Virus record (IMG/VR): IMGVR_UViG_2740892258_000009
Direction: 5' to 3' (one strand)
DNA from: a virus
Lineage: Duplodnaviria > Heunggongvirae > Uroviricota > Caudoviricetes
Length of the DNA stretch: 4,742 nt
Positions 962 through 4,742 of this stretch are shown here, piece by piece (the first letter of the stretch is position 1; each line of letters begins with the position of its first letter). The notes beneath the pieces were generated by a model. The model did not search any database and was not told the DNA's origin. It was given only the letters and a program-made list of their open reading frames with translations. A program made the translations under genes and the position numbers.

Positions 962-1069
962 GTTGCTAACGAATCATCCGGTCATTCATACGCCACCGGC
1001 GGCTACTTCGTGGGCGTCCTGCCTGTCCGTGATAGCTTACATTATGTTGCTACTTAAAGTAGCAAAAAT

Positions 1070-1098
1070 CAACAACAAAAAGTAGATATTTGTTGTTG
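1070..1098. repeat. 10-bp perfect inverted repeat CAACAACAAA-N9-TTTGTTGTTG; possible operator or weak AU-rich leftward terminator
   Basis: Arms at 1070..1079 and 1089..1098. On the minus-strand RNA the hairpin is followed by AUUUUUG. It shares the CAACAACAA motif with 326..369. Confidence 0.5.
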
Positions 1099-1117
1099 TC
1101 TATGATTTTTCTATAAT
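1090..1117 (+). promoter_or_regulatory. Candidate sigma70 promoter: -35 TTGTTG (1090..1095), 16-bp spacer, consensus -10 TATAAT (1112..1117)
   Basis: Perfect TATAAT hexamer in an AT-rich tract; the -35 is weak (3/6) and overlaps the right arm of the 1070..1098 inverted repeat. There is no sizeable downstream ORF, so any transcript would be a small or antisense RNA. Confidence 0.3.
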
Positions 1118-1256
1118 TAATTGAAAGTTAAATGTTTTTGCTGATTTACTATGCTGTAAACTGAAAATATCGCACGAAGTTGGAGTAGGTATTGAGCATA
1201 GTGAATTATGAGGAGGGAGTTTTTTATGAGATTAATCAGGGAGAAAGAAGAGTAAA

Positions 1257-1276
1257 GCCCGGTTATGCGGCCGGGC
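1257..1276 (-). terminator. Probable Rho-independent terminator of the ParA-like gene (leftward transcript)
   Basis: GC-only 6-bp stem GCCCGG/CCGGGC with an 8-nt loop, 8 nt past the stop at 1284..1286. On the minus-strand RNA it is followed by the U/C-rich UUUACUCUUCUUU (interrupted U-tract). Confidence 0.5.
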
Positions 1277-1283
1277 ACATGCA

Positions 1284-2360
1284 TTACTTTGTAAGTTCTA
1301 GAACTCGTTGAGCCAGCCCTTTAAATTGTTCGTTAAAGGCGTCTCTGCTTGATTTCATTGTATTTAAGGCATGCCCAAATTGCCCTGAATCGCGAATTTG
1401 CTGATCACTGATGGAGAAAACAGGTGTCGCTAGTTGTTGGCTTATTGCGATTAATGAGTTGAAATCGGAAATATGCGCAAGATCATAGGCTGATAAATCT
1501 CCACTGACTGTTGTTTTGTTAATTGCATGTTGCACTTTATCTCGTGGAATTATGCAGGTAATTTTTTCTAGATTTGGCACTAAGATCGAATCAACAGCAT
1601 CACGGATAGCTGCCATCCATTTTTCGAAAGATTTTACAGGTGCTCCTTTACGCGGCCTGTATCTCTGCTGAATCATACCTAGAAACTGCGGTGCATTTTT
1701 AATTGATTGTGAAGAGTTACCATCATTATTTTCTTTAAATAATGCTAATTCTTTGTGCCAGCGAGGTATATTTTTTGAGAGAGAGCGAATTGCTTGCCAG
1801 CAAAAAAAGTCTGGAGCTACAGGTACGATAAAATAGTCACTTGACATGAGAACTACTTCATTTAAACCTCCAACATTAGGGCTGAGATCATAAAGAATGT
1901 AATCAATATTATTCTTCATGGCGATTAGCTGTAATATTTTTGGCAGGTTCCCTGGTATATTTCTTGTAGCAGGAATACCAGCAGCAATTTTTAGAGAAAC
2001 ACTTATCTGTGAATCTAAGTCCGAAACATCTAAATGTCCGGGAAGAAGCAGAAGGTTTTCATGCAGTGTAGGGTGTAATTTTCCCGTTTCTTTTTCAAGG
2101 TATGCTTCAGGTTGTCCGCCATTAATCAAATATTCTACAATAGGTCCAAGAGTTAAGTTATCTCTGCTAGAATAAAAAGAATCTAAACCCTCATCAATCT
2201 TTTCATAGCCAAGAACCATTCCTGTTAGATTACATTGCGAATCAAGGTCAACCATCAATACTTTCTTGCCTTCATCCGCAAGTGCCCATCCAAGATTGAA
2301 GGTTGTTGTGGTTTTACTTACCCCACCTTTATGATTAAAAAAACAAATTGATTTTGTCAT
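1284..2360 (-). CDS. ParA/MinD/Soj-family deviant Walker-A P-loop ATPase with ~110-aa C-terminal extension, 358 aa; orphan (no ParB in window)
   Basis: Walker A at residues 9-18 (NHKGGVSKTT, the KGGxxK[ST] signature), DLDSQ-type A-prime motif (VLMVDLDSQCN) and a hydrophobic-Asp Walker B (IDYILYDLSP). ATG at 2360 with AAAGGA 9 nt upstream. The gene looks AT-richer than the replication gene by eye (not computed). Confidence 0.85.
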   Translation of the reverse strand: MTKSICFFNHKGGVSKTTTTFNLGWALADEGKKVLMVDLDSQCNLTGMVLGYEKIDEGLDSFYSSRDNLTLGPIVEYLINGGQPEAYLEKETGKLHPTLHENLLLLPGHLDVSDLDSQISVSLKIAAGIPATRNIPGNLPKILQLIAMKNNIDYILYDLSPNVGGLNEVVLMSSDYFIVPVAPDFFCWQAIRSLSKNIPRWHKELALFKENNDGNSSQSIKNAPQFLGMIQQRYRPRKGAPVKSFEKWMAAIRDAVDSILVPNLEKITCIIPRDKVQHAINKTTVSGDLSAYDLAHISDFNSLIAISQQLATPVFSISDQQIRDSGQFGHALNTMKSSRDAFNEQFKGLAQRVLELTK

Positions 2361-2461
2361 ATTTCTCTATCCTTTCGACCCCCAGCATATTGTAATTTAC
2401 GCTGGGTGATTATTTTATATTGTTAATGATAATGTTTAATAAAAATAAGAGAGTAAAACAA

Positions 2462-2474
2462 CTATTAGTAATAG
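2462..2474. promoter_or_regulatory. Operator-like 13-bp palindrome CTATTAgTAATAG in the cI/ParA-like spacer
   Basis: Perfect dyad apart from the centre base; same CTATT-N5-TAG architecture as the two 13-mers between cI and cro. Lies ~100 bp upstream of the ParA-like ATG in a 170-bp AT-rich spacer. Confidence 0.3.
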
Positions 2475-2530
2475 CACTTGCTTGATAAATATTATTTTTT
2501 CACCTTTAGTTCTATAGTCTAAACGAAGAA

Positions 2531-3292
2531 CTAAAGCCGGTTGTATTTAATTGATTCGTGTATCAATGCTTTGCCCATAACATAAAGTTGATCTTGGGAC
2601 TTCTCATCAATGTACCATTTCTCATAGGCTGGATTATCCGAAAGAACGGCGAGTTTGTTGCCTTGCATTTGTAGACGTTTAACGTGGAACGTCTTACCAT
2701 AAACGAAAGAGTAAACACCATCAGTTTGGAAGTTGCGAACAGAAATGTCGACAAACAGTCGATCTCCGGAAACTAGAGTAGGGGACATGCTGTCGCCATT
2801 TACAGTCATAACTTTAATATCATCTTGAGAACGATTACCGAAAAGAGAACGGGCATGCTCTGTTGTGAACTCAATGGCGTAGAGCACATCAACATAGTCT
2901 GAAAGCATATAGGTTCCAGGTCCTGCGCTAACGCTAAGATCCAAAACTTCTATCCTGTATACATCGGGTTTTGTTGGATTGGGGATGCTTGCCATTTCCT
3001 TACATCCTTCTCTCTCGCCAACACCATATTCTAAATATGAAGCTGATACCCCCAGAGCCAATGCAAGTTTATTCATGACAGAGGCACGAGGCTTCGCAGC
3101 GCCGATTGTGTATCGCCGCGCCATTTCATATGTAACGCCCACAAGACTTTTGAGTTGGGTGACAGAAATTCCCTTGTTTGTCATTAGCTCGTTTAGTCTC
3201 TTGGCGAAATCTGGATACTTCTGTTCTTCTACCATAGGTAGAAGGTTACTCGCATCACATACGCTAGTCATTTCTATTTTAAGTAGTTGCAT
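2531..3292 (-). CDS. CI-type phage repressor: N-terminal HTH plus C-terminal S24 (LexA-like) autopeptidase
   Basis: HTH segment GISVTQLKSLVGVTYEMARRYTIG; Ala-Gly cleavage dipeptide in LSVSAGPG (residues 123-124 of the 253-aa frame); catalytic Ser in VNGDSMSPT and Lys in FHVKRL, 36 residues apart. Start is uncertain: ATG at 3292, 3271 or 3235 (253, 246 or 234 aa), and the 13-mer at 3274..3286 favours 3271 or 3235. No SD before any of them, consistent with a leaderless transcript as for lambda cI. Confidence 0.9.
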   Translation of the reverse strand: MQLLKIEMTSVCDASNLLPMVEEQKYPDFAKRLNELMTNKGISVTQLKSLVGVTYEMARRYTIGAAKPRASVMNKLALALGVSASYLEYGVGEREGCKEMASIPNPTKPDVYRIEVLDLSVSAGPGTYMLSDYVDVLYAIEFTTEHARSLFGNRSQDDIKVMTVNGDSMSPTLVSGDRLFVDISVRNFQTDGVYSFVYGKTFHVKRLQMQGNKLAVLSDNPAYEKWYIDEKSQDQLYVMGKALIHESIKYNRL

Positions 3293-3333
3293 TCTGCTAT
3301 TTTAAGTAGCATCATCCCTCTGAATTTCAGAGG
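3274..3333. promoter_or_regulatory. Divergent cI/cro control region: two 13-bp direct repeats CTATTTTAAGTAG (3274..3286, 3297..3309) and a 17-bp palindrome CCTCTGAA-t-TTCAGAGG (3317..3333)
   Basis: The 13-mers are 23 bp apart and each is an imperfect dyad (CTA.TT.AA.TAG). Their reverse complements contain TAAAAT, a -10-like hexamer placed to start a leaderless cI message at the 3271 ATG. The 17-bp palindrome overlaps the cro SD (GGAG at 3331..3334). Confidence 0.5.
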
Positions 3334-3341
3334 AGAAAGGT

Positions 3342-3605
3342 ATGTCATCTCAAAACTACACAGAGAAAGCAGTAAAAGCTGCGGGAAAATCTTTATCTGA
3401 AGTAGCCCGTCACTTTGGTTTTAAGTCCACTCAATCCGTCGCTAATTGGGTAATTAACAATCAAGTCCCGTCAGAACGGGTTTTACAACTTTGTGAGTTG
3501 GGAAACTGGTCCGTGACCCCTCATGAACTGCGTCCTGATATTTACCCCAATCCAAATGATGGATTACCTGAGTGCTATTCAAAAGTTAGCGGTTCAGCTG
3601 CGTAA
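3342..3605 (+). CDS. Cro-like early repressor, YdaS-type Cro/CI-family HTH protein, 87 aa
   Basis: Divergent from cI, GGAG SD 7 nt upstream. Motifs typical of YdaS-like prophage Cro proteins (AVKAAGKSLSEVARHFGFKSTQSVANWV... LRPDIYP). Stop TAA at 3603..3605. Confidence 0.85.
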   Translation: MSSQNYTEKAVKAAGKSLSEVARHFGFKSTQSVANWVINNQVPSERVLQLCELGNWSVTPHELRPDIYPNPNDGLPECYSKVSGSAA

Positions 3606-3633
3606 ACGTAACCACAGAAACGAGGAGTTAACC

Positions 3634-4032
3634 GTGGGTAAGCATCACTGGAAAATAGAAAAACAGCCTGAGTGGTACGTGAAAGCTGTCAGAAAAACTA
3701 TCGCAGCGTTGCCGGGGGGTTACGCTGAAGCTGCTGACTGGCTGGACGTAACAGAGAACGCATTATTTAACCGCCTTCGTGCCGATGGCGATCAGATTTT
3801 CCCGCTGGGATGGGCAATGGTTTTACAGCGTGCTGGTGGTACCTCTCAATTTCGAAGCTGCAGGAGCATGCAGCACTGGTCTACAAAATCTTTTGTGTTT
3901 CAGAAAGTAATGACGCCCGCGAGTGTGCAGCTCCGGGCGTCGTGGCGTCGATTGCTTCTGGTTGTGGAGAAACTAACGCATGAACAGTTTAACAACACAC
4001 TACCGTCGCTCGCAACTGTGTGGAGAAACTAA
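3634..4032 (+). CDS. cII-position early regulator, as present truncated by a frameshifting 56-bp tandem duplication (probable pseudogene or altered C-terminus)
   Basis: GTG at 3634 follows a strong SD GAGGAG (3622..3627, 6-nt spacer), in the frame of track ORF 3523..4032. ATGs at 3523 and 3556/3559 overlap cro and lack an SD. The frame stops at TAA 4030..4032 inside copy 2 of the duplication. Assignment to a CII/YdaT-like family rests on gene position plus a loose resemblance and is unverified. Confidence 0.55.
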   Translation: MGKHHWKIEKQPEWYVKAVRKTIAALPGGYAEAADWLDVTENALFNRLRADGDQIFPLGWAMVLQRAGGTSQFRSCRSMQHWSTKSFVFQKVMTPASVQLRASWRRLLLVVEKLTHEQFNNTLPSLATVWRN

Positions 4033-4074
4033 CGCATGAACAGTTTAACAACACACTACCGTCGCTCGCAACTG
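3963..4074 (+). repeat. Perfect 56-bp direct tandem duplication (3963..4018 = 4019..4074)
   Basis: Base-by-base identity of TGTGGAGAAACTAACGCATGAACAGTTTAACAACACACTACCGTCGCTCGCAACTG in two adjacent copies; flanking bases differ. 56 is not a multiple of 3. Confidence 0.95.
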
Positions 4075-4374
4075 ATTGCGCTTCCTGTACCGGGTGGAAA
4101 AGCGAAGGTGGAGTATTGCTATGCAGTAAATGTACCAGGTGACAGGGAAATTGTAACCCACAGCTTTGCTGAGTGGGCTGTGGGTGATTTCAACCGGCAG
4201 AAGGAGACAGTCCTTTGCGACAAGTTAACCGCTGGTTCAAAGATCACTACGGAGTGCCCGTCAGAGTCATTCGTTGGGAACCGGAAACACAACGTGTTAT
4301 CTACCTCCGCGAAGGCTATGAGCATGAGTGCTTCAGCCCGCTCGAACAGTTTCGTCGTAAATTCAGGGAAATAG
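4036..4374 (+). CDS. Hypothetical protein, 112 aa (track ORF); may be an artefact of the frameshift
   Basis: ATG lies inside copy 2 of the duplication with only a distant GGAG (10-nt spacer). Product is Ser-rich with no motif I recognise. Mutually exclusive with the 4215..4394 model. Confidence 0.3.
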
Positions 4375-4394
4375 AGGTCGGTCATGAGCACTAA
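4215..4394 (+). CDS. Alternative small ORF, 59 aa, TTG start; hypothetical
   Basis: Not in the ORF track. AAGGAG at 4201..4206, 8-nt spacer, TTG at 4215. Product (L/M)[58 protein letters not shown] uses preferred CGT/CGC Arg codons; stop TAA 4392..4394 overlaps the replication gene start by 11 nt. Confidence 0.3.
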
Positions 4395-4742
4395 ATTAAC
4401 CGGCTATGTATGGGATGGTTGCGCTGCATCAGGCATGAAATTATCCAGCGTGGCAATTATGGCCCGCCTGGCTGATTTCAGTAATGACGAAGGTGTGTGC
4501 TGGCCATCAATTGAAACCATTGCCCGCCAGATTGGCGCGGGGATGAGTACCGTCAGAACGGCTATCGCACGGCTGGAAGCAGAAGGCTGGTTAACGCGTA
4601 AGGCGCGTCGCCAGGGTAACCGCAATGCGTCGAATGTTTATCAGCTTAACGTTGCGAAGCTTCAGGCAGCGGCATTTTCTCAACTGTCAGATTCTGACCC
4701 GTCAAAATCTGACGCATCAAAATCTGACGCATCAAAATCTGA
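4384..4742 (+). CDS. Phage replication initiation protein (lambda O-like), N-terminal HTH DNA-binding domain; partial, runs past the window end
   Basis: ATG at 4384 with AGAGG SD 6-7 nt upstream; open to the window edge. [70 protein letters not shown] matches the N-terminal HTH pattern of phage O-like initiators. Position after cro and the cII-position gene matches lambdoid order. Confidence 0.8.
   Translation, partial: MSTKLTGYVWDGCAASGMKLSSVAIMARLADFSNDEGVCWPSIETIARQIGAGMSTVRTAIARLEAEGWLTRKARRQGNRNASNVYQLNVAKLQAAAFSQLSDSDPSKSDASKSDASKS
4687..4742 (+). repeat. 15-bp tandem repeats TCAAAATCTGACGCA inside the replication gene; candidate origin iterons
   Basis: One degenerate copy (4687..4701, 11/15 matches), two perfect copies (4702..4716, 4717..4731) and a truncated copy to the window edge. 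In frame, encoding SDSDP-SKSDA-SKSDA-SKSD. The repeat is certain; the iteron role is inference. Confidence 0.8.

Follow-up and report, generated by a model that had tools for sequence, protein, structure and literature searches.

A solo ParA/MinD-type ATPase gene beside the cI repressor of a lambdoid Escherichia coli prophage is a candidate defence cargo of the lysogen

The 4,742-nucleotide (nt) stretch of viral DNA recorded in IMG/VR as IMGVR_UViG_2740892258_000009, hereafter the window, contains at positions 1284..2360 on the minus strand a gene for a solo ATPase of the ParA/MinD superfamily, 358 amino acids (aa) in length. Based on its genomic context, on the associations of its family and on analogy with other systems, we propose that this ParA-like gene is probably a defence or exclusion cargo expressed in the lysogen. 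Its product would act as an ATP-dependent dimer switch and would represent the solo counterpart of modules in which such an ATPase is paired with a HEPN protein, as well as a distant analogue of the phage defence protein GiPD474. In databases the protein is called “ParA family” or “ParA-like partition protein”, and the label “ParA partition protein” is misleading for this gene. The initial annotation of the window had listed superinfection exclusion, abortive infection, a MinD mimic and a maintenance function as possible roles in lysogenic conversion; defence or exclusion is now the best supported of these, and no support was found for a MinD mimic or for maintenance.

The protein starts with MTKSICFFNHKGGVSKTT and carries a deviant Walker A motif (KGGxxK[ST]) at residues 9-18, at its extreme N-terminus, and therefore has no N-terminal helix-turn-helix (HTH) domain. 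A Pfam scan returned AAA_31 at 2e-29 and also CbiA, and the PHROG match was phrog_164, “ParA-like partition protein”. NCBIfam models for classical ParA, MinD and other proteins matched only the first 40-75 residues, far under their cut-offs, and the one longer match, to SopA, was weak (E 1.4e-4); no model specific for the protein was found in the NCBIfam and PADLOC scans. The guanine-plus-cytosine (GC) content of the gene is ~37%, against ~50% in its flanks, as in a moron.

The ParA-like gene is part of a swappable immunity cassette, which follows from the operators that flank it and from mosaic junctions with phage PhiR29_1, and it occupies the position of rexAB in phage lambda. In lambda, rexAB lies between cI and oL and is exclusion cargo expressed in the lysogen. 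The cassette, composed of oL, the ParA-like gene, cI, oR and cro, spans 1027..3608. Its ends were defined by comparison with PhiR29_1, which is 99% identical to the window over positions 1-1026 and 93-98% identical over 3609-4742, and holds a different, shorter module in between. The window contains exactly three copies of an operator 13-mer, CTAYTTWAAGTAG, against 0.03 expected by chance. Two copies, at 3274-3286 and 3297-3309, make up oR between cI and cro, while the third, at 1050-1062 just left of the ParA terminator and with the perfect palindrome core TGCTA-N7-TAGCA, is read as a putative oL. The cI-type repressor gene (HTH_3 and Peptidase_S24 domains) is at 2531..3235 on the minus strand, with the RefSeq start at 3235 giving 234 aa; the longest cI open reading frame (ORF) starts at 3292 and would overlap both oR copies, and the 3235 start, which leaves the operators upstream, fits better. 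A Cro-like repressor gene of the YdaS family (3342..3605, plus strand) forms the right-hand end of the cassette and is followed by a cII/YmfL-like gene and then an O-like replication gene.

No terminator-like site was found in the 170-nt intergenic region that separates cI from the ParA-like gene (2361..2530, minus strand, ~31% GC), and a promoter-like site at 2438-2409 is weak, its match being no better than chance. The ribosome-binding site, AAGGA, is at 2370-2374 (minus strand). Just upstream of it lies a hairpin, CCCAGC-N14-GCTGGG (2381-2406, minus strand), which, lacking a T tail, does not qualify as a terminator but might serve in processing or regulation. An intrinsic-terminator-like hairpin with six G-C pairs and the T-rich tail TTTACTCTTC is found 8 nt past the stop codon of the ParA-like gene (1257..1276, minus strand) and would end a cI-ParA transcription unit. 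With no terminator in between, a shared strand and flanking oL and oR, the ParA-like gene would be transcribed together with cI from the maintenance promoter. A 55-aa ORF at 1117-1284, overlapping the stop codon of the ParA-like gene, was discarded as a gene, since it is made up of the terminator hairpin and an AT-rich spacer and lacks conservation. The extent of the 358-aa ORF, its Walker A motif without a preceding HTH, its place downstream of cI on the same strand, its own terminator, the rex position and the absence of an N gene from the window had all been described in the initial annotation and were confirmed.

The window agrees at 99.9% identity with a lambdoid prophage that sits at tRNA-Arg in the extraintestinal pathogenic (ExPEC) E. 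coli strains IHE3034 and APEC O18 and in further strains; this prophage encodes an integrase and a Q-type antiterminator and has lambda-like head genes. The ParA-like gene was detected in 109 of 5426 complete E. coli genomes (~2%), the ExPEC strains IHE3034 and APEC O18 included, and all 110 E. coli copies are chromosomal; the 109 copies compared in length show 99% identity or more across no less than 98% of it. The cI allele carried by the window was, in exactly that form, also found in 109 genomes, and a variant with 91-95% identity in 95 further ones, in two of which, SWHEFF_69 and GPEC1240, the content of the slot was checked. In SWHEFF_69 the same slot, beside a 92% cI variant, is occupied by a different ParA-family gene coding for 361 aa with GGVGKT at 29-34, whose 90% cluster spans E. 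coli and S. Typhimurium. In GPEC1240 the slot, beside a 94.5% cI allele, holds an unannotated two-gene cassette (2958-3949 of its locus) coding for proteins of 120 and 210 aa, for which a Pfam scan gave no convincing match. We regard this cassette as alternative cargo and as a further candidate defence locus.

In order to examine the family more widely, one genome per species and IMG/VR were scanned, which gave 160 loci; together with loci fetched previously these were dereplicated at 90% ParA identity into 104 clusters. Homologues of 343-380 aa, from Acinetobacter, Megalodesulfovibrio, Limnohabitans, Chromobacterium, Pseudomonas, Klebsiella, Mannheimia and other hosts, align end to end with the window protein at 60-88% identity. 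The family as a whole extends over all classes of Proteobacteria, Campylobacterota, Akkermansia, Veillonella, Cyanobacteria, Bacteroidota, Bacillota, Planctomycetota and Acidobacteriota, with one bacterium of the candidate phyla radiation and one archaeal metagenome-assembled genome (Nitrososphaera). In an exhaustive HMMER search of 1.84 billion representatives, 275 clusters (formed at 50% identity) reached E<=1e-30; the clade of the window gave a single top-scoring representative, with 606 bits against 371 for the next full-length match.

De novo clustering of neighbouring genes around the 104 representatives revealed only one widely conserved neighbour, a protein of ~200 aa whose gene directly follows that of the ATPase, on the same strand, in 17 representatives. 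All 12 tested copies matched Pfam HEPN_RiboL-PSP and contained an invariant RRNxIxHE, the R-x4-H signature of HEPN RNases. A profile built for this HEPN partner detected it in 23 loci, in each of them directly downstream of the ATPase gene and usually abutting or overlapping it, and all with ParA identities to the window protein of 40.5% or less; it gave no match in the window, in loci with ParA identities of 41% or more, or in the 45-kb E. coli locus. Neighbour joining placed the HEPN-linked proteins in a near-pure clade (17+1) and the window-type, solo proteins in a separate one (43+2), with mean within-clade identities of 53% and 58%, respectively. Positions that are conserved differently in the two clades cluster in helices 110-130 and 185-208: the solo clade has L115/D116/Q118/K124/G128 and C187/Q189/E204/F208 where the HEPN-linked clade has Y/E/T/E/S and S/M/W/A. 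The hosts of the two clades scarcely overlap in the surveyed sample. One HEPN-linked module is at 8717-10268 of the Pseudomonas filamentous Pf prophage AY324828, at the accessory end next to the immunity region; its HEPN ORF is not annotated in that record.

The split between the two clades bears on an alternative in which the solo ATPase derives from the regulatory half of ParA+HEPN modules and acts as an antitoxin-like decoy or counter-defence protein, neutralising HEPN RNases of the host, of rival elements or of its own trans-encoded nuclease. The strict HEPN linkage of the sister clade is consistent with this, as are the postulated antitoxin role of such an ATPase in a 2013 survey (PMC3710099), the frequency of solo genes on phages and the several anticodon nucleases of the Salmonella prophage Gifsy-1 mentioned in PMC13043305. 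However, the clade-specific conserved residues argue that the solo clade binds a different partner and not the same HEPN protein, the two clades rarely share hosts in the surveyed sample, and the family HEPN profile matched nothing in 45 kb surrounding the E. coli gene. Furthermore, the ParA-like gene lies in the lysogenic operon and not among the early lytic genes. We therefore consider a decoy function rather improbable.

It could also be argued that the gene is a decaying remnant of a former ParA+HEPN two-gene system, carried along passively with its cI allele, given that it stands alone while its sister clade has an effector and that in E. coli it goes strictly with a single cI allele (109 genomes each). 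Decay would not be expected to leave a solo clade with 58% mean identity across phyla, invariant ATPase motifs and full-length proteins, nor the high identity and coverage seen among the 109 E. coli copies. The solo clade is also separate in the tree, rather than made up of scattered losses, and this explanation is accordingly very improbable.

The surroundings of the solo-clade genes are those of prophage immunity regions, defence genes or single-gene insertions. In Gifsy-like prophages of Salmonella, which occupy several integration sites, and in lambdoid prophages of Klebsiella and Pseudomonas, the solo gene directly follows the repressor gene; in the P22-like phages ST160/SE1 it lies between c2 and gene 24, and in an Acinetobacter prophage it comes after an Arc-type repressor, so that members of the clade share this slot beside unrelated types of repressor. 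In a P4-like island of Megalodesulfovibrio gigas the solo gene is located beside HicAB, DarTG and a type I restriction-modification system. Neighbours up to three genes away in ~45 solo-clade loci include the defence proteins AbiLi, AriA-like, MADS, Gabija and DRT, as well as the phage immunity proteins S24, cII, N and Cro-like. The genes upstream were mixed (S24 and HTH repressors, DUF3024, also bipA/prfC, rpoD and dnaJ), and several closely linked downstream genes were housekeeping genes (uvrA, ispA, aroK, rbfA and argG), which indicates single-gene insertions. A GmrSD_N/DUF262 gene lies downstream of one Campylobacter solo gene. In the wider family, the ParA-like domain is fused to a CE-clan Ulp1/RickCE protease (n=4) or to Schlafen/AlbA_2 and HATPase_c_4 domains (n=1). 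An NTPase with interchangeable effectors is the usual signature of a conflict system.

Two further explanations can be weighed against this distribution. Orphan ParA/MinD proteins are generally known to position or regulate many cellular processes, and an orphan ParA-type switch that is probably co-transcribed with cI might modulate lysogeny, induction, the nucleoid or cell division as a MinD or Soj mimic. Single-gene insertions of some family members beside housekeeping genes would agree with such a regulator of prophage or host physiology, as would the 2-4 fold increase of Gifsy titres on induction when the remAIN region, which codes for a ParA-like ATPase, was deleted (PMC9879122). PMC13043305 now attributes this rise in titres to defence activity. 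No MinC/MinE-type partner is present, and the C-terminus of the window protein is a long core helix without the conserved amphipathic membrane-targeting tail of the MinD type. The slot, moreover, holds interchangeable unrelated cargo beside near-identical cI alleles, as is typical of accessory defence cargo, and a regulatory role is in our view unlikely.

The other explanation, a classical partition or maintenance ATPase (type Ib ParA) with its partner and centromere elsewhere, would agree with the ParA fold, the complete set of catalytic motifs and the database names. In line with the initial annotation, no ParB is encoded in the window, and none is annotated within 20 kb on either side of the ParA-like gene; a repeat search of 850-2600 for a parS-like array gave only short pairs at chance level. 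Neither a partition operon nor a conserved ParB-like neighbour was present in any of the 104 dereplicated loci. The element is not a phage-plasmid with ParB and parS outside the window but an integrase-bearing prophage at tRNA-Arg, its E. coli copies are all chromosomal, and relatives are encoded on only 23 of 72,556 plasmid records, one of which is a 4.9-Mb chromosome. Classical partition was rejected on the lack of ParB, parS and plasmid context in an integrated prophage, and we regard it as exceedingly improbable.

Profile and structure searches with the full protein returned a ParA fold, and an AlphaFold2 model computed from 38 sequences was confident, with a predicted local distance difference test (pLDDT) value of 84 and a predicted template modelling score (pTM) of 0.88. 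The initial annotation had described some 110 extra C-terminal residues without a recognisable motif. The extra length is real, but it does not form a separate C-terminal domain. Because residues 1-202 of the protein already correspond, by profile comparison, to Soj 1-169 only, the ~105 extra residues are, according to alignment and model, insertions at about 50-100, 125-133, 205-224 and 255-292 together with a longer last helix, all within one ParA fold. The C-terminal third of the family also bears the invariant motifs QQRYRPR, DFNSLIAISQ and FGHA..TM. In every branch the signature lysine K11, the Walker A K16, D38/D40 and the Walker B D158 are kept, as are a Q-x-Y-R-x-R loop (232-237; R233/R235/R237) and the segment D-F-N-x-L-I-A-x-S-Q (299-308). 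With all ATPase motifs invariant, an active ATP-dependent dimer switch would be expected from what is known of ParA/MinD proteins. Segments 111-130 and 231-240, where conservation is highest, are modelled with some of the lowest confidence (pLDDT 57-69), a combination that would fit interaction surfaces.

Based on these features, we propose the following route by which the ParA-like protein might act in defence. Through the invariant K11, K16, D38/D40 and D158 it would form the ATP-sandwich dimer typical of ParA/MinD proteins, and through the invariant loop with R233/R235/R237, which is at the position of the DNA-binding arginine of Soj, it would probably bind DNA non-specifically. The clade-specific, conserved and poorly modelled surface (~110-133 and 185-208) may recognise a partner or a phage trigger, upon which the ATPase switch would, by analogy with GiPD474, block a post-adsorption step of infection without a fused effector. 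More speculatively, the solo ATPase could be a self-sufficient immune protein, an ATP-driven and DNA-bound dimer switch that senses a phage component via its clade-specific surface and arrests infection without a nuclease, toxin or membrane effector, for instance by coating or sequestering DNA, and that evolved from, or gave rise to, RemAIN-like modules of an ATPase and a HEPN anticodon nuclease. We put this forward tentatively. If it is true, “long ParA” ATPases would constitute a broad class of immune sensors throughout bacteria whose effectors are exchangeable or dispensable.

The proposal of a defence or exclusion cargo rests overall on context, family associations and analogy, and several points weigh against it. 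The ParA-like protein has neither an effector domain nor a partner gene. The 2023 PADLOC scan contained no model for it and matched only its Walker A region, to the candidate PDC-M28B. Some solo-clade genes lie by uvrA, ispA, aroK and rbfA without mobile or defence genes, among the few neighbours inspected, and a cellular role is possible there. At 23-26% identity to the GiPD474 type, function is not transferable by homology. Finally, the 361-aa protein of SWHEFF_69 was equated with the GiPD474 type via its length, motif position, slot and the 90% cluster that it shares with S. Typhimurium.

Several other features of the window and of related loci were recorded. To the left of the ParA-like gene, a convergent plus-strand gene at 384/408-899 (phrog_1244), followed by a terminator at 938-957, codes for a protein that begins with a coiled coil and has a CxxC...CxxC zinc ribbon at its C-terminus; transcripts running leftward from the putative oL/pL would cross this gene in antisense. 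It was rejected as a partner of the ParA-like gene, being 99% identical in PhiR29_1, which has no ParA gene, and replaced by other genes at other loci. To the right, the cII-like ymfL of the window differs from that of IHE3034 by 208 missing bp (junction 3839/3840) and by a 56-bp tandem duplication (3963-4018 = 4019-4074), so that its ORF codes for 132 aa instead of 185 aa; the shortened ymfL could reflect either a defective regulator or an error of assembly. Phage ST160 has a DUF3024 gene (5521-5862 of the locus) between the repressor gene c2 and the ParA-family gene, and the upstream neighbour at a second solo-clade locus is also a DUF3024 protein. One Klebsiella prophage with a solo ParA gene encodes a 265-aa HTH_ParB-domain protein (5500-6297 of the locus) between cII and O in the rightward operon; this was seen at that single locus, and ParB families did not rank with the commonest neighbour families. 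At Salmonella, Klebsiella and Morganella loci and on two IMG/VR contigs, a small acidic ORF (~65-70 aa) lies 37-40 nt downstream of the solo gene and convergent to it; as it is absent from the window, it was rejected as a partner.

Among characterised systems, GiPD474 (WP_000368620.1; Bosma, Noireaux & Bowden, Applied and Environmental Microbiology 2025) is one of the closest. This solo 361-aa ParA/MinD/Soj-like AAA_31 ATPase, with GGVGKT at 29-34, is encoded in a Gifsy immunity region of S. Typhimurium 4/74 and strongly expressed in growing lysogens; in E. coli K-12 it lowered the plating of T4 and Alf5 by ~5 logs, and FO1 was restricted in Salmonella LT2 (PMC12724215). Its homologues, defined in that work by at least 70% identity and at least 70% coverage, adjoin cII, cro and repressor genes across Enterobacteriaceae (PMC12724215). 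Like the window gene, GiPD474 is a single gene of ~360 aa coding for an AAA_31 ATPase without a fused effector, in a prophage immunity region beside repressor, cro and cII. The E. coli GiPD474-type protein shares 23% identity with the window protein by BLASTP (E 9e-14) and 26% by hhalign, the profile alignment covering 297 columns (residues 5-333 against 22-341) with a probability of 98%. As judged through this E. coli protein, the window family falls well below the 70% identity that delimits GiPD474 homologues. Since this alignment runs over 297 columns, whereas canonical Soj aligns to residues 1-202 only, the two appear to be distant relatives that share a “long ParA” architecture and belong to different families. 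They also differ in their Walker A motifs (GGVSKT at 12-17 in the window protein), and the window family is spread over a much broader range of taxa and possesses a HEPN-linked sister clade. A Salmonella member of the window family, which has GGVSKT, was rejected as being GiPD474.

The RemAIN system resembles the window gene in its location and the sister clade in its composition. STM14_3218-3220 lie directly downstream of the Gifsy-1 repressor gene in S. Typhimurium 14028s, and STM14_3218 (RemA) was described as ParA-like (PMC9879122). These genes were needed for the RtcR-activating signal, thought to be cleaved tRNA, that arises on SOS induction; their expression was repressor-like and not induced by mitomycin C, and they lowered phage yield (PMC9879122). 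As cited in PMC13043305, RemAIN consists of the ATPase RemA, the immunity protein RemI and the HEPN anticodon nuclease RemN (Sargen & Helaine 2024). Both RemA and the window protein are ParA-like ATPases encoded directly downstream of a prophage repressor gene. RemAIN, however, comprises three genes (with an ATPase of 279 aa), and in combining a ParA-like ATPase with a HEPN nuclease it corresponds to the sister clade and not to the solo window gene. A Salmonella member of the window family was rejected as being RemA (STM14_3218), its locus at the Gifsy-1 site lacking ORFs of 840, 309 or 663 bp. The HEPN survey of Anantharaman et al. had earlier predicted, on computational grounds only, a toxin-antitoxin dyad of a HEPN protein and a ParA/Soj-like ATPase, with the ATPase as the antitoxin (PMC3710099). 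This arrangement is that of the sister clade, with its 23 loci carrying HEPN downstream, while the clade of the window gene has no HEPN; the HEPN families also differ, being MAE_18760 in the 2013 paper and Pfam HEPN_RiboL-PSP in the sister clade.

RexAB and the window gene share the location between cI and oL and, probably, co-transcription with cI. RexAB is a two-gene exclusion system without sequence relationship to the one ATPase gene of the window: no RexAB model was matched in PADLOC, and Pfam gave ParA-type families only. With ParABS systems (type Ib ParA), the window protein has in common the ParA/MinD fold and the signature lysine, and it lacks their partner, parS and autonomous replicon. 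ParA-Soj (PDB 8ray, 6iub) and McdA likewise share with it the deviant Walker A signature lysine and an arginine-rich loop at the DNA-binding position, but the window protein has ~105 extra residues, no ParB or McdB partner and no centromere, and the similarity is weak past the first 50 residues. Its closest solved relative by sequence, and also its top Foldseek match, is PDB 3pg5 (DIP2308 of Corynebacterium diphtheriae, 361 aa; profile E 6.4e-28, residues 3-322), an uncharacterised structural-genomics entry with ~20-24% identity. The window protein matches by full-length profile, C-terminal third included, the “long ParA” family that 3pg5 typifies.

The initial annotation could place a ParA-like ATPase in no described defence system, a view that RemAIN (PMC9879122, PMC13043305), GiPD474 (PMC12724215) and the dyad predicted in 2013 (PMC3710099) have made outdated. 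Prophage immunity regions prove to be rich in defence genes. The split of the window family into solo and HEPN-linked clades with differing conserved surface residues provides a handle on what the ATPase senses and on whether an effector is needed. Overall, this kind of ParA-like defence was already known from RemAIN (2024) and GiPD474 (2025), and the family of the window gene, a candidate for such a role, is a third and much more widespread one.

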